From Microthyrium microscopicum (Eukaryota): a stretch of 64,000 nt of DNA. This document shows, in pieces, positions 12,620 through 25,981 of this stretch (its first letter is position 1; each line of letters opens with the position of its first letter). Where the stretch lies: NCBI GenBank assembly GCA_010405405.1, contig MU004230.1, forward strand, positions 654,627 through 718,626, written 5' to 3'. A program made the position numbers and the translations under genes. The notes under the pieces are model-generated. The model saw only the letters and a program-made list of their open reading frames with translations, did no database searches and was not told the DNA's origin.

Positions 12620-14583
12620 TTATTCTTCATCACTGCTCTCATCATCCAGCATACCAGGTGGAGCCACTAAATCAAAGCTAGTATATAGCCCATCCACCCA
12701 CTTCTTGCTGGTAGGTAGAAAATATGGCTCAAACGCATAATGCGCATCAAGCTTCAATGCTGCCTCACCACCAGACTTCATCGACAATGCGGACTGCCGT
12801 GCGACCGAGCCGTGCTGAATAACACGCGCCAACCGCACACGCTTGTTAGTTTCGAGCTTGGAATACAGGTACAAGAAATTGAGTGCTTTGGTAACCTGCG
12901 CAAACATGTCGACAATCAGCGGCGCGCAGACCTTGAGTGGGTTGATAGCACTGTTGATGTTGACGTCAAACGTCGCCTTGATGCCTGGTAGCCAATGACG
13001 CTCCTCGTCGTCCGCAGCATCGTCGTCACTGTCATCGGCTAGCAGGTCGCGCCAGCGGAAGCAGAATAGGTACATGACTGCTTGGAAGAGGAAGTAGTAG
13101 AGGCCGTATTTGTCGGGGTCTGGACCTGTGGCGGTACGCTCGTGGCGTTTGCGGATAGTGTCGAGTTCGTGCATGAGGCGAGCAAAAATGGATCGGACTT
13201 GGTCTCGGTCGATTTTGGAACCGCGCGCGGCGAAGCTGGCGAGATAGGAGATGGCAGTGGATTGTGTGATGCGTGCTTCATCGCTGTTGAAGGTAATCTT
13301 CAGGAGCGCATCTGTGAAGGCTGTGTAAAAGTCTGGGTTTAGTTGACCAAATCGGAAGAGGAGAAATTGACAATGGCGAGAGTTTTTGATCTTGACGTAG
13401 GATGTTGCAAATGTCGAAACCATAAGCTCGGTTGTATCGATTCTCGCAGTTGCAGCGTTCTTACCATCGGCGTTGAAAACATCCTCGTAGTGCTGAAAAA
13501 GAAGGCTTAAAACAGCATCAACTTTTAGCATGGACTGTTTCATTGCATCCAATGCCTTTTTAGACTTCTGTTCCGGATCATCCACCAGTTCATCATCGTT
13601 GTCATCATCATCGACAACCTCCTCCTCTATCTCAGGCAGATCTCCGAGGAGTCTAGCCATGTCTACTTTGAGTTGTTCGCTTAGGAGTTCAGCGTATTCG
13701 TCGCCCAAGGCGTCGAGCACAGCCCCAAGTTGAGCATCAATGATGATGATCTTTTCCATTGTTAACCTCAATACCTCGGGCTGCAATTTTGGCATATGCT
13801 CTCCCAATAACAGGATATTTTTGACAAACTCGACGTATCCTTTGGTTTCGGAGGCGTGAAACGGAAAAACGTCTCGAATAGTGCTCTCCAAGACAGATTC
13901 AGCCGCAGGTAAATATCGGATTAGTCCTTTGATTGAATTGAAGGTCCTCCGTATGATATCCTTGGCGCTGGTTCCAAAATGGGTCGAGTCGGTTGCTGTA
14001 AGTTTTGTTAGTGCTTTGATCTCTGAAAAACAATAGCGGTTTGCTGACTTCTGAAAAATTGGCAGACTAGAAATCGCATAACTGCAGACAGGTATGTACT
14101 GTGTCCGCTGAGAATTGCGGCTAGAAAGCGCTGAAAGTCCACCCAGATCTGCTCTTCCCGCTCTAACCAGCGACATGCCAGGCAGGCCTTCAACAAACCT
14201 CGACAATCCTTCCCCATATAATATGCCTGGTCTGTGACTGCTTTGAGGTATCGTCGAAGGGCGGTGTAGGACAGGGCTTCATCTTGGTCTGGTGCAGCTG
14301 CAAGAACTCCCTTCAGTCGATCGTATAAGCCATCATCTTTTCGCTTATGCCGCTCGATAGCTAGGCGGACTTCTTCTTGCACCAAGGACCCGGGCTTTTC
14401 TGGTTTTTCGATTGCTGCGATGGCTGGCTTTACATCTTGAGTTTTGGCGGTTGCGCTAAAGGAAACTTTTTGTCGCTTTTGTTGGGCATCTGGTGTAGTT
14501 GGAGGTGAAATTTCGCTTAGGGAACGCTTCAGCTTTCGGGCTGGGGCAGGTTCAGATACGGTCTCTATGATTGCAGATGCCAT
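12620..14583 (-). CDS. rrn3: RNA polymerase I transcription initiation factor Rrn3 (intron 13996-14048)
   Basis: YLASFAARG, FQAVMYLFCFRW, INPLKVCAP, YAFEPYFLP motifs; acidic internal loop and C-terminus. Confidence 0.9.
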
Positions 14584-14819: not shown

Positions 14820-16555
14820 ATGTCCGATCCATTGGTTTCCAGACCGGCTAATAGAGACCAAGCGAGTGACAGGTTCTTCTCTGCATATGACCAGCTCATC
14901 CACGACACTATCAATTATCATCATGTCCCTGCAGTGTCCGTTGCTGTCATCGATGGCGATTCAACCTGGCTCAAGGTGCGTGTCGTTTATTGATACTATA
15001 TGCTAGTATTGTTCACAATTGGACGGCCTTACTGAAAATGGTCCTAGGCGTATGGCATGGCCCAAGTCGCGGATGAACTGGTGCAAGCAGAAAAAGTCAA
15101 TACCGAGACACTTTTCAACGCTGGAAGTATGACAAAGGTCTTCATCTCAGCAGCTATCTCACTACTAGTTGACGATGACTCCTTTCCTGAGGTACAGTGG
15201 TCCACGCCTGTTTCTCAGCTACTTCGTGATGATTTTGTTCTTTCTGACAGCCACGCTACACAAGTCGTCACCATCGAGGATATTCTCTCTCATAGAAGTG
15301 GCTTAGCTGAGTATGTTCCCATTGATGGGATGATTCGGTAAACTTAACAGATTGTCTAGTCAAGATGATGCTTTCATGGGCGTCCATGCCAAAAAGCCCG
15401 ATACGCTCAAATCAGTGACTCGTAAACTACGATATCTTCCATTGGCCGTTCCACCGCGGACAAAGTTCTTGTATTGCAACGCTATGTACGCCGTAGCTAC
15501 ATATCTAATTGAGACACTCACCAACATGCCAATCCGAGACTTCTTACGCCAGCGAATCTGGACACCCCTTGGCATGAAAAACACTTATTTTGGTCTCGAC
15601 GATGTCATTGAGCATCAACTTCTTAATAAAGTTGCCAAAGGCTATGGATGGGATAACGATAAGTCATCCTGTTTTGAGGTTGACCACCCAAGACAACCTG
15701 AAGCTGCTGGTGCAGGCGAGATGATAACTACCACAGGTGATTATGCGCTGTTTCTTCGTTGCATGTTACAACGCACAGGTCCAATATCGGCTGCTGGCCA
15801 TGAAGAGCTCGTCAAACCACGCATGATCACTGATCAAGATCCTAATCCTTTTTGGAGCCATCAGCTGTATTCGATGGGTCTAGAAATCGAAAATTACCAT
15901 GGAGAACAAGTGATTGGACACACTGGCAGCACCACTGGTTTTGCATGTCAGATGGTTTTCCTCCCTCGCAAAAACTGGGGATTCGTGATCATGGGCAACA
16001 CACACGTAGATGTTATGGGCAAGACCAAAATCCGTTGGACGTTGATCGATGATTTGTTGGAAGTGCCAGCAAGCAAACGCTTCGACTGGAATGCATATGC
16101 CGCCCGACTAGAGAAAGAGCTAGAGGCTGCTACGATCGAGGATCTCTATCCCAATCTTCCAGATTCCCGTCTCCCATTGACAGTACCCCTGACGGACTAT
16201 ACAGGTTCATATTGGCATGCTGGCTACGAGGAGCTGGTAATATCTCCTTTTCCTTCCTGAGTCTCTCAGGCGTCAATGGTTATTACTTACTAATACAAAT
16301 ATACAGACTGTCGACCTCGAAAGTGGCAGGCTTGAAGTTGATGCATCCGATAGATGTTGGCGATTCAAACTACTTCTAGAACACATTTCTGGACAGTATT
16401 TCGTTGCCAAAAAGGTAGATATAGATACGCGCGAAGAAGACTTGCTGAAAGCAGAATTTCGAATCGACTCGAGTGGATCAGTTGGACAACTCGGAATTGC
16501 CTTTGTGGCTGACTCTAAGGACGAAATTATATGGTTCGACAAGATAGATTCGTAG
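14820..16555 (+). CDS. Beta-lactamase/AmpC-family serine hydrolase with probable C-terminal DUF3471-like domain (4 exons)
   Basis: Exon 1 MSDPLVS...VPAVSVAVIDG; SxxK (GSMTK), YxN (YCN), HTG triad motif, LSHRSGL; ends IWFDKIDS*. Confidence 0.88.
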
Positions 16556-17400
16556 AAGACTGAAGGTTAGTCAAGTCGAGATTTGTAGCCAATGGTCGTT
16601 CGTGCCAGGTACTGTCGACTCTCAACCCGCCCACTTTTATACCATCACTATACCATACAACTAGCCTATCGACTGATGCGCCTGTCATGGTATTTGAAAA
16701 TAATTGAAAAAAAGCAAGTATGGCCCATCAGATCGCTATAGGACTTCAACAAGGGACTCGAAGGCCCTGAATTTGCATAAGCACGACCAGCATGGGATTT
16801 CCATGTTCCAGCTTTCAACCCCTTCATCCTATCTTCTCAGCATGGCTTTCAGTTCTTCAAGATTCAGAACCTGTAACACTTCGCTTCAAACAGTCTCGTA
16901 TCAGTGTATAATTCATGAAGCGCCGACAAGGCTTCGTACTTTCTCCTCACCGGCTAACATTTTTCATGACATGATTTGATGTATAGGGCTCACTATCAAT
17001 ATCGAAATGTCAAAAATGTATTAAAGGCTGCATGCCAAATTGAATATCCTGGCGTGCCTGGCTATAGTGATCCTATTATTAACGAAGCAAACTCTGAGAA
17101 CTCCTATTTGTCCCAGCTTTGACAGATTGAGCACAGCAAGCCTGCAGCGTTCTGGCCTCCACCACACGGGGTTTCATTTATAAGTGACCAGACTCAATCA
17201 CCTCGACCTAGTTCTCTCTGCGAGAATTTATAGAGATGGCAACGTCTGTGCAGTCGAGCAAGGACAGCGAGGGGAGATCCTACAAGATCACATATATTAC
17301 TCCCCAGCTACAAGTCACAACATCTATTTGAGCAGCCTAATCATGCTATCATATCTCTTGAATTTCTTTAGCTCCCAGACATGTGATTGGGCGAATCGCA

Positions 17401-19571
17401 ATGAATGCTTGCAGAGATAGAAGAAGTAAGGAGCATGTTTTCCCTTCATTTCTGATATTTTGGTTCCTCGTCTCGCGCCTACTCCTCGCCAACGCAGAGA
17501 CAACACCCATTGTTATCAAGGTAAGGTTAGCAGGATAATAGTGTCCTATTCTCTAGCTAACATCGTAGGGCTCTCGCTTCTTCTATCAAAATGGCACACA
17601 ATTCTTCATTCGCGGCATCTCCTATTCGAACGACGCGCGATCTGCACCTGGGAGTACAGTCGTGATTGACACCATATCCGATGAGCTCAGCTGTACGCGA
17701 GATATACCATACTTACAAGGGCTTGGTGTCAATATGCTCAGTGTTCGAGATGTTGACGTCAATGTGGATCATACAAGCTGTATGAATCAGCTTGCTGCAG
17801 CTGGCATATATGTCATGTTCAAGGTGGATGGACAAACGGCGCAATCGAAAGTGCGAAATGGATCAGTCATAACACCATTTGATTCCTCGATGATTGAGCA
17901 TAACCAGGCGGTTGTAGATGTGTATCAGAAATACTCCAATACTCTGGGTTACTACTTCTCTGGGGAGAGGAATAGGATGGACGAGACACCGCTTTATAAG
18001 GCGTGGCTGATACACTTGAAAGAATATATCAAGAAAAAGGGCTATCGAAGTATACCAGTAGGATTTTACCGTCGGGTAAGCATCATGCCCCTAAGCACTG
18101 CATAGTGAACTCAATAATGTAGGGGACTTATTTTGGCCAAGACGACCAAGCACAATATCTGAACTGTGGTCCGCATGACGAGTCCATTGACTTCTTGGGT
18201 GTCGACTTTGAGATGGACTCTTGGGCGATTCAACACTGCGTCGACAATATCACTTTAGCTCTATACGATCTTCCAGCACGATATTCGAATTACTCGATCC
18301 CTTCTTTCGTTGTGTACGGATGCGCTCAGAATCGGAATCATACTTTTTCAGAAGTGGAGACTATCTACGGAGATAGTGGATCAAAAATTATGTCTGGAGG
18401 AGTGGTAAAAGAATGGATGGACGACCGAAGTACGGGAGACAATTTGGGTATGTTGTCAAGCTCGAAGATGCAAATACTCGTAGCTGACTTTCCACAGGGC
18501 TCGTGGACATTGTGAAAGGTACGAATATCAGCGTTCGTCCAAGTTATAACGCTCTACATTCCCAATTCCTCGCCGTACATCCATCTTCAAAGTTGCCTAC
18601 AGTGGATCTTTACAAGCCTACAAATACCGCACCGTCGACTTGTCCGACTTTACACTGGGAAGTCGAATCTAAAAACCCCAGTGGGCTTGTTGTCTACAAG
18701 GGAGGGTCATCGACGACAAAACTTACCACAAGTTCCTAATCGACGGCTGTGCTCTTGCATGATGGAGACTTTAGATTGTATGTTTAACAGCACTGATCTA
18801 TGGGACTATAGCACTTTCAAGAAATATTGCAAAAACCCATACGACGACAATCTCTGCAAAGCAGTTGACAACAACTATACAACGGGCGTTTATGGGACAT
18901 ACGATGGATGCACGGCGCAGGAACAATCATCTTGGATATTGAGTCAGCTATACATCTCCAAAGGCCGAGATCCAGCCAGTTGTACCTCTGCCGGGGGTAT
19001 TATGAAGACGCCAGTCGCAGCAAGTTCAAGGCAAGCCGACTGCCAGTCGTATCTCAAACAAGCTGGGCCCGATTCAGTTGGCAAGATTACGGCCACGCCG
19101 GCTCCGGTGCAAGAGCAGCGACCAGCTAATGGAGATGAGCTGAAACCGGCAACCAAAGCGGGAATAGGCGTCGGCATATCAATATTTGCTTTGATTTGTA
19201 TTGCTGTCGGATTTGTGCTTTACAGACGACGGCAAAACTCAACAGGATCAGAAGAAGAAGACCTTGGTTTCGAAAAAGCTGAACTGGATGGTTCGGAGGT
19301 TGGCGCTGCAAAGACACAGCCTCAGAGTGACATTCCTCCTGACAGCGCGGAATTGGACTCTGGAGAAAGACACGAGATGGCGACAGATGTTCCCCATGAA
19401 CTGGAGACTCCCGTCACAGGAAGTGAAACAACTGCAATACCACACGAGATAGACAGTCGTGAGATTGCGGAGCTGGAGGGTAGTCTCGCGGGCCATGAAA
19501 TGAAGCAAGAGACGGTCGAAAAGCTCGTTAACAGAGGTTACATGGGTCCTCTCAGCCCTGTGATAGAGTGA
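17401..19571 (+). CDS. Divergent GH72 (Gas/Gel 1,3-beta-glucanosyltransferase-like) protein with X8/CBM43 domain, single TM helix and cytoplasmic tail; apparent frame break at ~18720
   Basis: Signal peptide, then PIVIK|GSRFFYQNGTQFFIRGISY, CTRDIPYLQGLGVN, DHTSCMNQLAAAGIYV, KGYRSIPVG, YLNCG..SIDFLG. Introns 17521-17568, 18076-18122 and ~18448-18497. Cys-box LCSCMM...GVYGTYDGC. TM AGIGVGISIFALICIAVGFVLY followed by RRR. Confidence 0.85.
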
Positions 19572-19855: not shown

Positions 19856-21516
19856 TCAAGACCGGAATAAAAGCTTGAACCGGAATTGAATCTGGTGGTA
19901 GGCTGGATCCGAAACCGCAATTTCCTCCCCATCAGAGACAAGATCCGTGAGCTTCTTGTCTAGATTCGGACGAGTCTGCTCTTCCAAGCTGGGTGGAGCT
20001 TGATAGTATAGAGACTTGGCTTCAGTCCGAATCGTAGGCTTTTTGAGTTGTCTTCTAACAAATTAGCTTTCGACTATATAGCGATACCAAGATACATACG
20101 CTTCTGGGCGCTCAGCCAAGTTCTCGATCAGCTCTCTCAAAGTGATATTTGAGTTGACTTCAATCTTCTTGGCCAAGTTACCGCAAACCGGGCAGTCGTC
20201 CTTCTTCAGATGCTCGAATGTGTAGGTATATATTCCTTCGTCACCACTGTACATCATGTAATTGTTGGAACCAGGCATTCCAAGACCGGGATTTGTTGAA
20301 CTGGCGAGTTTGAGTGCTTCGTTGCAGCTGCTCGCAGCTATGATGGCGTTGGTGGAGGCGATCGCTGGAATGATGTTTTTGACTACACCTTGGGTCATGG
20401 AATAGGTGACGCCTTGGATATTGAACTCCTGTGCGCGAGCTAGCGCCTTTTGGAAGAGCCATGTAATATGCTCTGGGTCGTCCGTATCGAGCGTAATGTC
20501 TGTATCTCATAAGAATCATTCCCAATTTCAAAACTTTGGCTTACCTTTGCGCTCTTCCTCCCATGCAATGATATGTGCCCATTCGATACAATGTTGAGGC
20601 TGGCGAGGAATTGTAGCAAGTGTACACAGAGGCACTGCCTCTCGTGGGGCGTGCATATCCAGCTGGCATTCAATACACGATGTCATAGTCGGCAGGATGA
20701 CTTTAGATTGTCCTTTGAAGCCTTCTTTACGTTAGCAAGCCTGTAGCAAATGTTGATAGGCTTCTAACCTTCTGTACCACCATCGATCAATGGCTTTAGG
20801 CTGTCTGGATTGTCGCCGTCAACCATTCCGACGAGCATGGCGTTGATCCATCTCCGAGCTTCAACGCTGTCGAGACCACAGATGACAAGGCCAAATTGCA
20901 TGTAATAATCCTCATCTTTGTCTTGGATTTTGCCACAGTAAGGGGTTATTTTGACACCCTTGACTCTCTTTTCAACGAATTCAGCAGCCACTTCTGCTTT
21001 GTGTCGACCAACATCCGCTTGACGGAACAGGAACTGGCGGTTGAGATTGGAAACATCGATCGTATCTTGGTAATGGTTAGAAGGATTTGTATCGTTTCAG
21101 ACACAACCCACCCATATCGATGACATGTATGTCCTTGAATCCCGAGAGAGCCAAGTTTTTGAGCAGCTCGCATCCTAATCCTCCTGCGCCACTTTTCAAC
21201 TTAGTTTGTCTCTCTTATGCCTGGGTAGACATGTCTGGAACCTACATGACTCTTGGCATAGTTAGTATCTGGTGTGATAGTTATGAGATGGGTCACAAGC
21301 TTACAAGATCTTCATTGAAGATATGCGCTGTATAATTTCATCTCCGAGTGTGGCCTCATCATCGGTGAAGGGGCCTGGCGTTGTGAGAAAGCGATTTAGA
21401 TATTGCCTGCATGTTTTTAGTTCACTATGGCAACCGTAAGGTGGGCTGTCGAAGAGGGTATGTTACCATCTGTTGACATCGCTTTCTATGCCATTTGACA
21501 CAGCTCCAACTGCCAT
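19856..21516 (-). CDS. uba3: NEDD8-activating enzyme E1 catalytic subunit Uba3 (multi-exon, includes a 6-nt micro-exon)
   Basis: [49 protein letters not shown], catalytic [31 protein letters not shown]. Confidence 0.95.
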
Positions 21517-21889: not shown

Positions 21890-24803
21890 ATGATGAACAG
21901 TCCAGAGGATGTCATCCAGGCCTTCAAGAATGAGCCAGATCTGAAGACCCTCAAGTCGGCTCTGAGATACCTCCGCACTTGGAAGCTATCATTTCCGTCG
22001 CCTCTATCAACACAAATCTTGGTCTTGTTCATCAATGATGTTCTACCAAACTATTGGGCACAGCTATCGAACGATTCTTCCGAGCAAGAGTCCATAGATT
22101 CGATTCAACAACTGCTTCGTAATGTCCCAGCGATTGGTGCTATAATTACTCGGCTCAAAGCCCTTGGCTCAACTGGTCAACCGACTGCTGGCAAGCAAAG
22201 CTTCCTTCAGACTCGAACCACATGTGCCGTTCAAATGTTGGAACTAGCACTTGATGGTGACCATGTCATAGCAACCATATGGGAGGATATGCAGACGTTT
22301 GACTTAAAAGCATTGCAAAAAGATATGCTATGGTCCCAGTTTATTTCAATCGTGGCTTCGGGAAAAATTGTCTCTACAGTGTCTGAAGCTGAAGTAAATC
22401 TCAATCAGCTTGGTGGCTCGAAGAGTCAGAGCTGGCTGGGCTCAGGCAGAGATTATTCTCTTTGGATTGCCAGGAATATCTCCAATCTAGTATGTCAACT
22501 TTGTGCGATTGGTAACTCAGCCAGAATACTGCGCTACAGCTTTCATGCTTCAGCCATTCAACCAAAGAGAAAAGCGTCCTTTTGCAACATCTGAGAACAT
22601 AAAGCTAACCTGTCTAGGTCTCAAGTCCTAAAGCTGCGGCGCCCTTACTTTCCAAATCATTCAGTCTTGGTTATACGGAGCCACTCCTAAACCAGCTTAT
22701 GTCAACTATTTCTGTGCCTGCCTTGAGAGAGAATCTTCATCTCATGCGCTCCTTTGAGCAAAGAACTCTATTTACCAATCTCACTCGAATCATATCTGCT
22801 GAGATTTCTCCGATGACCAACTCGAATGCAGATGGGGCCTCCGAGAAACAAATCGCTGAATGGGCGGCTTTCATGCGTGACTTGATAGCCGAGAATGAAG
22901 TGCTCAGTGATCATCTCATGGACCTCCTTACCAAACCGGAAACTAGCACTCTTTCATCCACTACCGCTTTTCTGCGGGCTGGTCTTGCTGCTTTATCGTC
23001 CGATCGCATTCGAGTGGATATGATGCTAGAACGGTCATTTGACAAATTCTCCGACAACATCTTCACAAAGCACGCTCCTATCCTCCATCAAGAATCCATT
23101 GTCCAACTACTCTTGCTCATATCAGGACATGTTCACCGTAACCAACCCGCCAAGCTCTCAACATTCGCACGATCAGGCAAATACATGAACGCTGTTTCAA
23201 ATCATATAGCCAGTACCTCGGCGCGTGTCAAATGGCTTGGGATGCTAGTAGCCATGGCAATATCCGGGTTGACCGATAAAGAAGACCTCAAAATGAAGTT
23301 TAGCGATGATTTACTAGACACCAAGGAGGCCAAGTGGTACTTTTCTCTTTTGAAGCTAGAACTAGTTCCTTCGGCAAAGTTCAAGACTCAGACACTGTTC
23401 AAGTCGACATCTCAACCTCAGCCAGAGAAACTCACGACGACACTTACATTGAGACCTAAACCCACTGCCAAACAAAGCCCTTCCAAAGCCAAGCCAAAGA
23501 GACCCAAGGCTGTTCCCCCATCATCCGCAAGAATCATCGAGATATTAAGCGACGAAGAAGATGAGGATGATCTGGTGCCCTACGCTAAGCCGGACTCGGA
23601 TCCAGAAGATGAAGAAGAAGATCCAACACTGGTCGATCGAAACAAGCCCAAGCCGCCTGTGTACGTCCTCCCGGTTTGCTGCATTTTAGGATATCTTACT
23701 AATGTTGATGAAGGTATATTCGGGACCTCCTTGTTGGACTACGCGAAACCGAAAACTACAATAAGCACTATGTTGCTATATCTTCCGCTCCCTCCCTTAT
23801 ACGACAAAAGGCCACATTCGGTAAAGAAGTCAAGGACCATATCCAAGAGTTGGCGAGTATTCTCATGAATCTAAACGATACTTTTGAGCTAGAAAAATTC
23901 CTTGAGTGGAGGCAGGAAGCGCTAATCGCATTGATTATTGCTGATCCTACAGCTGTCGCACAATACTATGCACAATGTGCTGTTCTTGGCGACTTCTCTG
24001 TCCAACAGCGAACTGCTATTCTGGCGGCCATGGGATTAGGGGCCCGAGAGCTAGCTGGCATGAAAGATCAGGAAAGAAGTGAAATCAGCTTTCCATCCAA
24101 GAAGCTACCAGCCCACCTCCATCAAATCTATTCTGACGAGAACACACCCTTGAAAAGCATATCAAGTCGTGTGCAGCAAAGCATTGTTGAGCCGATGGCT
24201 CTCAATGCCGCTGATCAACTATCTGGCCCCAACGTTCTAAAAGTGCGTACATTTTCCTCGCGCATGGAGAAAGAGAAGACTAGAAAACGACCGGCAGCGA
24301 ATGAACTCGCCAAGATTGTTGGTGAAGCCTTCTTCTTTCCCCTCACGGGCCGTTGGTGGATTCAAATGCAGTCATCTGGACAACAATCTGCAATTGCTTC
24401 GTCTCACCTTTTACCCGTTTACCTACGCACCCTCGCGCTCATCATGCATGCTGCTGGACCATGGGCGCTCGCTTTGCCACAGATGACATCCGAGTTTTGG
24501 GCAATCCTGTTATCGTTACGGTCTATTGCCCTGGCGGAGAAGCAGTACGCTGTTCTGGAGGCCCTGTTGTTCTCCCTCCTTATCATCTTCGAGGTCAACG
24601 AGAATAAAGAACAGCTGGCCAGAGACCAATCGAACGCATTGCTAGAGTCACAGGAATGGGCTCGACAAGTTCTCAACGAAGTTGGACATGGAGATGAGGA
24701 AGGCGAGAAAGTTCGTGGCTTAGCTGCTAGTGTGATTATGCACAGTCAGGAAGTTGTCGAGAAATGGCAACGTTTGATGGTTGGCGACTTGATCAATTAT
24801 TGA
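21890..24803 (+). CDS. tel2: Telomere length regulation / PIKK-assembly protein Tel2 (start codon uncertain)
   Basis: Characteristic DDLVPYAKPDSDPEDEEEDPTL...PPVYIRDLL segment; AADQLSGPNVLKVRTFSSRM; FFFPLTGRW. Confidence 0.9.
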
Positions 24804-24877: not shown

Positions 24878-25981
24878 TCATGACATTCCAGCGTCATCTA
24901 TTCGATTGTGTACGATTCGCTATTCAAAGTTAGTTCGATCCCGCCTTACTTTGTGCATGCACTCACTAGAAGGTTTCTGAGCAGCACTATTATAGTGACC
25001 TTTCCTATAGCCGGTACGTAAATGGAGGCTTTTTCTTTCACCTCTGGAGTAAAGTTCTACGTATATCAATTAGTACACAGTATGTTTCGTCATTCTGGCT
25101 GATTCCGTACCTTTTCACTCGAGAAATTGATGCAAACTGCCCCATTTCGAAGTAGCTTCACTGGTACCTTGTACTTGTCGCCCGGCACGCCACTGATAAC
25201 GACATCACTCAAGGGAAGACAATGCTCGATGGTCCAGCCACCCTTCTCGTCCACAGTGTGCCTTCGCTTTCTAAGCCCTTCACCACGATGGAACTGCTCC
25301 ACATTGTCAATGTCAACGGAGTACACATTGGCACCATCATTGGCTAGCAACGCAGCAAGTGGCCGTCCGACGACTTCTGAGCGGTTGATGATGGTGACAG
25401 TGTGGCCGTGAAGTCTGTTTCCATATGGCAGGATCGGGTTGTAAACATGAAGATACTCAAGGATCTTGATAACGGCGAGAGGTGTGCATGGTAAGATGCT
25501 TTTCCTCTGCTTTGCATCGTCGAGGAAGCGGATATTTTGGTACATGTTGAAAATGTACTTGTGACTGAGGCCTTCGACGTCTTTTCCAATGTCAACTATT
25601 TGTTGGAGATATTGATCTTGGCGATTGCCATGAATCGGGTAGTAGACGATAATGCCATCTACCTTGTCGTCGGTGTTCGCGCTCATGATACCTTCTTCAA
25701 TGTCATCCTTTGTGACTTCACGAAGTTCAAAGTCAAAGCCACTAGACAGACTTAGCCAAAAAATTTGAATTATATTTCAATATACCTTACTTGTCTCTAC
25801 ATGTCTTGCCGGTCCAATCAGCATATACTCGGGAAGCGGCATCATCTGTCGCGAGGAAGCCAACCAGCAAAGGTGCTCTTTCCAGCTTCTTAACTCCTTC
25901 TTGCACTTCGTTCTGCAGTGATTTGGCAATATTACCAGCAAGAATCACTTTGCAGTGGGAAGGCTCTGGAGCACTGGCCAT
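24878..25981 (-). CDS. mtd1: NAD-dependent methylenetetrahydrofolate dehydrogenase Mtd1
   Basis: LVGFLA, VDGIIVYYPI, KDVEGL, ILPCTPLA, INRSEVVGRPLAALLANDGA, YVPAIGKVTI; last exon RIVHNRIDDAGMS*. Confidence 0.93.

Follow-up and report, generated by a model that had tools for sequence, protein, structure and literature searches.

The 64,000-nt window analysed here, positions 654,627 to 718,626 of the forward strand of contig MU004230.1 (assembly GCA_010405405.1) of the Dothideomycete fungus Microthyrium microscopicum, carries at 17401-19571 a locus related to the GH72 beta-1,3-glucanosyltransferases, the Gas/Gel enzymes of the fungal cell wall. The sequence-only reading of this DNA had taken the whole interval for one protein, a GH72 enzyme converted into a catalytically dead, membrane-spanning and receptor-like molecule. 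Much of that picture stands, but the single protein does not. The GH72 frame stops at a TAA at 18737-18739, while the X8 domain, the transmembrane (TM) helix and the cytosolic tail lie behind this stop in the +1 frame, and no splice joins the two frames in the RNA contigs. The X8 domain is thus present, but not in one polypeptide with GH72. The features of the locus, in positions of the window, are the following.

17401 to 17520, forward strand: exon 1, with the start codon and a signal-peptide-like hydrophobic N-terminus (translation, hydropathy)
17521 to 17568, forward strand: intron 1, 48 nt, with GT..AG ends; skipped in RNA contig record 1, which joins 17518 to 17567
17569 to 18075, forward strand: exon 2, the N-terminal half of the GH72 domain (PF03198, E 2e-36; alignments to Gel4 and Gas2)
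18076 to 18122, forward strand: intron 2, 47 nt; skipped in RNA contig record 2
18123 to 18447, forward strand: exon 3, the C-terminal half of the GH72 barrel (PF03198, E 1.7e-14; alignments)
18448 to 18497, forward strand: intron 3, 50 nt; skipped in RNA contig record 3
18498 to 18739, forward strand: exon 4, the final coding stretch of a 397-residue product, with the end of GH72, a linker Cys (STCPTLHWEV), about 19 out-of-frame codons and the TAA at 18737-18739
18665 to 18701, forward strand: the interval that holds the +1 frame break, 37 nt (12 codons + 1), including an A5C4 run at 18671-18679 (limits from a profile and from tblastn)
18681 to 18732, forward strand: the only candidate intron here, a GT..AG segment of 52 nt whose removal would fuse the frames; its donor is GTGGGC and its acceptor AAG, and a CTRAY branch site is absent
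18702 to 19571, forward strand: a second open reading frame (ORF) in the +1 frame, with the LPQVPNRRLCSCMM linker, X8/CBM43, a stalk, the TM helix, RRR and an acidic tail; stop at 19569-19571

The gene structure is derived from three-frame translation and a splice model, and the RNA evidence consists of the assembled contigs of one small public run (X1). These contigs skip introns 1-3 exactly, at GT..AG ends, so that the run behaves as RNA and the three introns are confirmed. Depth in this run is given as a mean for each contig, and the contigs take in neighbouring genes as well, so that no expression level is drawn from it. The exon 1 product, whose hydrophobic window covers residues 12-31, matches the N-terminus of database protein P0001 identically. 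The exon 2 translation is 100% identical to the same protein, a GAS1-like entry of 397 residues from M. microscopicum, and the stop at the TAA gives exactly this length. A second database model on the same scaffold, P0152 (263 residues, X8-TM-tail), spans 18780-19571. With two models on one scaffold, the public annotation treats the locus as two genes.

RNA contig record 3 bears directly on how the two halves are connected. Intron 3 is spliced out of it, yet between 18497 and 19700 it matches the genome letter for letter (0 differences, 0 gaps), and the segment 18681-18732 is skipped in none of the assembled contigs of the run. Genome and RNA contig both show the frame break, which is thus real and not an error of assembly. 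Exon 4 and the TM/tail region share one colinear contig, in which the halves are out of frame. The dominant transcript retains the 52-nt segment.

The GH72 domain upstream of the break has lost most of its active site. According to the available part of PMC3627985, the GH72 active site consists of Glu176, Glu275, Tyr107, Tyr244 and Tyr307. At the locus the nucleophile region reads YSIPSFVVYGC (18291-18323), as the sequence-only reading had reported, with neither Glu nor Asp at the nucleophile position. In phmmer alignments to Gel4 and Gas2, Val (18312-18314) stands opposite Gas2 Glu275 next to a one-residue deletion (FV.VYGC against FFsEFGC). The acid/base motif had been called degraded, and this holds in part. 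It reads GYYFSGERN, and Gly replaces Asn175 of the N-E motif of Gas2; the Glu itself (codon 17965-17967) aligns exactly with the acid/base Glu176 and is therefore retained. Alignment to Gas2 reveals three further losses: the equivalent of Tyr107 is Arg (17746-17748, exon 2), that of Tyr244 is Asp (18216-18218, exon 3) and that of Tyr307 is Lys (18408-18410, exon 3). In total 4/5 of the named active-site residues are gone, in addition to the Asn of the N-E motif. The (beta/alpha)8 barrel fold, in contrast to the active site, is predicted to survive in the 397-residue product. The AlphaFold2 model of P0001 has a mean pLDDT of 84.2 and a pTM of 0.86, and Foldseek places Gel4 first (8pe2_A, E 4.7e-28, TMq 0.73), followed by ScGas2 (TMq 0.69-0.72). 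The view of the GH72 domain as a catalytically dead pseudo-enzyme is supported, and the loss of four of the five named residues and of the Asn strengthens it.

The second ORF encodes the parts that the sequence-only reading had placed at the C-terminus of its single protein, and as parts they are all present. X8 (PF07983) is found by Pfam at about 18777-18995 (E 3e-9), and the modelled domain superposes in Foldseek on the CBM43 part of Gel4 (E 1.9e-6, 118 columns). Hydropathy places a TM helix at about 19155-19220, followed by RRR and by a tail of 115 residues with a net charge of -17 and seven [AH]E[LMI] motifs. E[LMI] occurs 8 times in this tail compared with 2.8 times in shuffled sequences, and with the tail start set by the hydropathy rule its juxtamembrane KxE[LM] motif, which reads FEKAELDG, is found 15 residues further on. 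There is no C-terminus of the glycosylphosphatidylinositol (GPI) type, the sole C-terminal hydrophobic stretch being one that precedes 115 hydrophilic residues. In the model of the downstream product the X8 domain has a pLDDT of 74-96 and the TM segment is helical. Disorder is predicted for the tail, which lacks secondary structure and has a pLDDT of 37-54. A query with the exon-5 product for homologues among longer proteins found none, and in an Atlas search on the TM-plus-tail feature all scores stayed <0.9, so that the fungal single-pass proteins it listed are weak leads. One of these is a cluster with Mid2 on 25% of its members (score 0.82).

The domain arrangement that is broken at this locus occurs unbroken in other fungi. 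An exhaustive search with exon 2 returned 655 representatives (50% identity) at E <=0.001. Among the best 150 of the 655, the matches after P0001 are two fragments at 76% and 69% identity, and the rest are at <=45%. A profile search with the clade alignment was dominated by canonical GH72 proteins; it scored the 8000 candidates sharing most words and is no census. Both searches together provided 147 proteins of >=380 residues, with shorter ones and P0152, P0153 and P0232 left out, and a FastTree phylogeny was built on 340 GH72 columns of 146 sequences after P0098 had been dropped for low coverage. P0001 falls in a 7-tip subclade (support 0.993) inside a 23-tip clade (support 0.972), which contains, besides P0001, 20 proteins with GH72 followed by X8, a TM helix and a tail of 61-182 residues, and two other truncated models. 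The search for such relatives that the sequence-only reading had called for thus bears out its architecture as a family trait. The canonical N-E together with the nucleophile Glu is found in 0/23 clade members versus 69/71 GPI-like GH72 proteins, in columns set from the canonical P0024; within the clade the nucleophile column holds Glu in two members and Asp in two. A regular-expression count of N-E over the 150 proteins gave 45 canonical, 87 non-canonical and 18 without the motif, and is indicative only, since in some proteins, among them P0001, it picks up an N-x-L that comes before the true site.

The tails of the clade share more than their charge. Over 22 clade tails E[LMI] is observed 104 times against 31.8 in composition-preserving shuffles, 16 of them have KxE[LM] no more than 50 residues away from the membrane, and 21 begin with two or more K/R. 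All of the named clade proteins (14/14) come from Dothideomycetes, mostly Pleosporales, plus Zopfia and Microthyrium (P0001, P0189). Paralogues are frequent, with three in Lophiotrema and two each in Amniculicola and M. microscopicum. The second M. microscopicum member, P0189 (636 residues), is intact and has the same layout, with FEKAELPG after its TM helix. The architecture of dead GH72, X8, TM helix and acidic tail in one ORF is real and conserved in the relatives. The locus shares with them its placement in the tree and its TM helix and acidic motif tail, but not an uninterrupted coding sequence from GH72 to the tail. The two Amniculicola lignicola proteins, P0039 and P0103, have consecutive accessions on one contig of 1,079,093 nt and are probably tandem duplicates. 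A GH72 of the lichen-forming Arthoniomycete Coniocarpon (P0093/P0237) combines X8 with a TM helix and tail, yet it is not part of the 23-tip clade and retains both Glu (Y-E and A-E-F-G-C), implying that the TM anchor and the loss of catalysis are separable.

The full-length relatives also allow the frame break to be located. With a family profile hidden Markov model (HMM) built from 20 of them, the exon-4 frame corresponds to nodes 308-362, up to nt 18664, and the other frame takes over from node 359 at nt 18702; the second ORF as a whole (18702..19571) matches the profile with an E of 5e-51. A tblastn search with P0232 gives pieces that stop at 18661 and resume at 18693. The LPqvPnrrlCsCmm of the locus is aligned at high posterior probability with the LPpkPneklCsCmm of the family. 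The codons of this conserved LPxxP fall within the candidate segment 18681-18732, and splicing would delete them. In relatives the linker reads LPTLPYNRTCSCMM, LPPTPNRRLCECMM and IPPSPYQRLCSCMM, and the closest full-length ones (P0013, P0016/P0151, P0160, P0142 and P0079) are single ORFs through it. An insertion or deletion within 18665-18701 most likely broke the frame. The X8-TM-tail ORF is still intact, which suggests either that the disruption is recent or that the second half is still in use; the break is probably recent.

Taken together, these results make it reasonably probable that the locus is a frame-broken member of a family of Dothideomycete type I membrane proteins that arose from the GH72 beta-1,3-glucanosyltransferases. 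A protein of this family would have a signal peptide and a dead GH72 barrel, which a linker with Cys connects to X8/CBM43. A TM helix would replace the GPI signal, and the cytosolic tail, acidic and disordered, would carry KxE[LM] next to the membrane as well as E-[LMI]-[PDE]-[GS] repeats. Its ectodomain may serve as a non-catalytic module that binds glucan or the wall, and its tail motifs may recruit cytosolic partners for signalling, trafficking or tethering. In the copy at this locus, the +1 break in the variable linker between GH72 and X8 would leave the dominant mRNA encoding only a secreted, dead GH72 domain of 397 residues, with the X8-TM-tail ORF behind it either untranslated or separately translated. 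This secreted domain is the most likely product, and the receptor-like full-length protein is probably not made from this copy.

Several observations weigh against a simple frame-broken copy. Assembled contigs drop minor variants, and a minority form spliced from 18680 to 18733 could escape them. The downstream ORF is stop-free over 279 codons, keeps all the conserved Cys and is 56% identical (156/279) to the orthologue fragment P0153, which has the same MMETL start; this likeness would also fit a conserved discontinuity or a continued use of the second half. When metagenomes were scanned for the contigs behind P0002 and P0003, two close orthologues, 15 loci came back, all at <=45% identity; 14 of them are of the canonical GPI type and one (L006) of the TM type. 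The locus could instead be one intact five-exon gene in which 18681-18732 is an inefficiently or conditionally spliced intron, giving a 657-residue membrane protein plus a soluble 397-residue isoform when the intron is retained. The GT..AG ends of the segment, its length of 52 nt, close to that of introns 1-3 (47-50 nt), and the restoration of a frame without a stop over 657 codons all speak for such a gene, as do the intact and conserved downstream ORF and the possible loss of minor isoforms from the contigs. Removal of the 52 nt would also set the Cys-to-Cys spacing of the linker at 19 residues, as in P0020 and the canonical GH72 protein P0024, so that the spliced product would not be absurd. 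However, the very contig from which intron 3 is removed reads unspliced through the segment, the segment carries the family-conserved L-P-x-x-P codons with their high-posterior alignment, and the nearest full-length relatives have an uninterrupted ORF at this place. In addition, the donor is weak and, together with the AAG acceptor and the missing branch motif, unlike the sites of introns 1 and 3, and the public annotation leaves the halves unjoined. We regard the five-exon gene as rather unlikely.

A functional gene fission would yield a secreted dead GH72 domain and, from Met 18759 or 18780, a separate X8-TM-tail protein oriented N-out by its TM helix. It would agree with the two database gene models, with the K/R after the TM helix, as the positive-inside rule expects, and with the fact that the 397-residue product keeps the linker Cys pairing with the GH72 domain, a disulfide described in the available part of PMC5753161. 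The fragment P0153 begins at the same MMETL, but this start says little because a gene caller starts at ATG. The second product would, moreover, lack a signal peptide, although some 140 residues with 8 Cys would presumably need translocation. No transcript start of its own is seen for it, contigs being unable to show starts. Fission seems quite improbable. The two ORFs could also be fused by a programmed +1 ribosomal frameshift at the stop of the first, where UCC UAA U is reminiscent of antizyme frameshift sites; a shift at 18734-18740 would read ...SS-NRRLCSCMM in frame. Such a mechanism is highly improbable. No stable RNA structure is found 3' of the stop (z +0.98; 170/200 shuffles fold at least as well), no relative shows such a site, and the conserved LPxxP lies upstream of it in the other frame, which makes the overlap look like the outcome of an insertion or deletion and not like design. 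The UCC UAA U context (18734-18742) was therefore set aside as a coincidence of the overlap.

The frame-broken copy remains the preferred account of the locus. The sequence-only reading had proposed that the ectodomain binds glucan and signals through the tail, and members of the clade may do so. In the most far-reaching form of this idea the clade would be a new class of fungal surface receptor, in which the GH72 barrel and CBM43 read the beta-1,3-glucan of the wall and the E-[LMI]-[PD]-G motifs of the tail relay to partners in the cytosol. At this locus, regulated splicing of the 52-nt segment would then decide whether a secreted decoy (397 residues) or a membrane receptor (657 residues) is made. 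We consider this composite proposal improbable.

Compared with the known enzymes ScGas1/Gas2 and AfGel4 (PDB 2w62, 8pe2), the locus has the same two domains, PF03198 and PF07983. Its predicted barrel superposes on Gel4/Gas2 with a TMq of 0.69-0.73, its X8 superposes on their CBM43 part, and it keeps their Cys framework along with the acid/base Glu. It differs from the Gas/Gel enzymes in the replacement of Glu275, Asn175 and Tyr107/244/307, and in having a TM helix and a 115-residue acidic tail where they have a GPI-type hydrophobic end. P0001 also falls in a separate long-branch clade, and this copy is broken in frame. Inactivity within GH72 is not new: the available part of PMC5753161 discusses ScGas3p and CaPga4p, for which no transglycosylase activity was detected, as structural mannoproteins. 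These belong to the GPI-type Gas/Phr families (PMC5753161, same part), unlike the clade with TM helix and tail. A TM-plus-tail form of GH72 is not mentioned in that paper, where the only passage on transmembrane proteins concerns the Wsc/Mid sensors. The clade is laid out analogously to the Wsc/Mid2/Mtl sensors of cell-wall integrity described there, which are type I membrane glycoproteins: the ectodomain faces the wall, one TM helix follows and the tail lies in the cytosol. It differs from Wsc/Mid2 in that its ectodomain is a folded GH72 barrel with CBM43 and not a Ser/Thr-rich rod, and the locus has no WSC or Mid2 Pfam domain. A second set of GH72 proteins, group B (P0029, P0049, P0072, P0078, P0081, P0084, P0112 and P0118), likewise has a TM helix behind GH72, some 400-490 residues into the protein, and tails that measure 77-237 residues. 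Unlike the clade, group B has no X8, lies outside the 23 tips and includes several members that keep N-E or D-E and the nucleophile Glu. Those members that bear a name belong to Eurotiomycetes, Leotiomycetes and Dothideomycetes, plus a lichen fungus of the genus Candelaria; the other genera are Aspergillus, Rhinocladiella, Botrytis, Cadophora, Patellaria and Vermiconidia.

In filamentous fungi, sensing of the glucan wall is known mainly through sensors of the Wsc/Mid type. GH72, one of the well-studied CAZy families, is at the same time a target for antifungals. A conserved and paralogue-rich clade of this kind is a candidate link between wall and cytoplasm, or at least a new class of pseudo-enzyme within GH72. 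No description of a TM-anchored or residue-dead GH72 protein was found in full-text literature searches, subscription journals not being covered, and a search on Microthyrium listed nothing relevant. The membrane-anchored pseudo-GH72 family is apparently undescribed, while inactive GH72 as such is already known. Proteins of the clade are annotated as 1,3-beta-glucanosyltransferase or GAS1, names that probably overstate their activity. The locus itself is a caution, since only by overlooking the frame break does one obtain its attractive full-length protein.

At its acid/base and nucleophile sites the single TM-type locus of the metagenome scan, L006 (5001-7232), reads IGE and LLGLYGC, respectively, and its tail has ELPG/ELPA motifs. 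Its X8-TM-tail ORF begins about 150 nt past the end of its GH72 ORF.

The locus has housekeeping genes as neighbours. GC content is even (0.43-0.52) over 14-23 kb, with no sign of a region rich in repeats or affected by repeat-induced point mutation, and the following neighbours were identified.

12620 to 14278, reverse strand: RRN3 (PF05327, E 1e-106), a housekeeping neighbour
15334 to 16260, forward strand, as the GH72-like gene: a beta-lactamase-family gene (PF00144, Pfam)
20063 to 21096, reverse strand: a ThiF-family (UBA3-like) gene, the convergent neighbour
23712 to 24803, forward strand: a Tel2-type telomere-length regulator (PF10193), a housekeeping neighbour
25090 to 25776, reverse strand: tetrahydrofolate dehydrogenase/cyclohydrolase, a housekeeping neighbour

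RNA contig record 1 (2327 nt, approximately 15222-17596) connects the beta-lactamase-family gene upstream with exon 1 and the first part of exon 2 of the GH72-like gene; the same-strand neighbours are bridged in the RNA assembly by read-through or overlapping untranslated regions. RNA contig record 3 (2800 nt) extends about 1.4 kb beyond 19700 (19572 to about 21100) into the convergent ThiF-family gene, which suggests that the 3' ends of the two genes overlap. Its mean depth of 386.6, compared with 4.92 for the middle contig of GH72, is not assignable to either gene.

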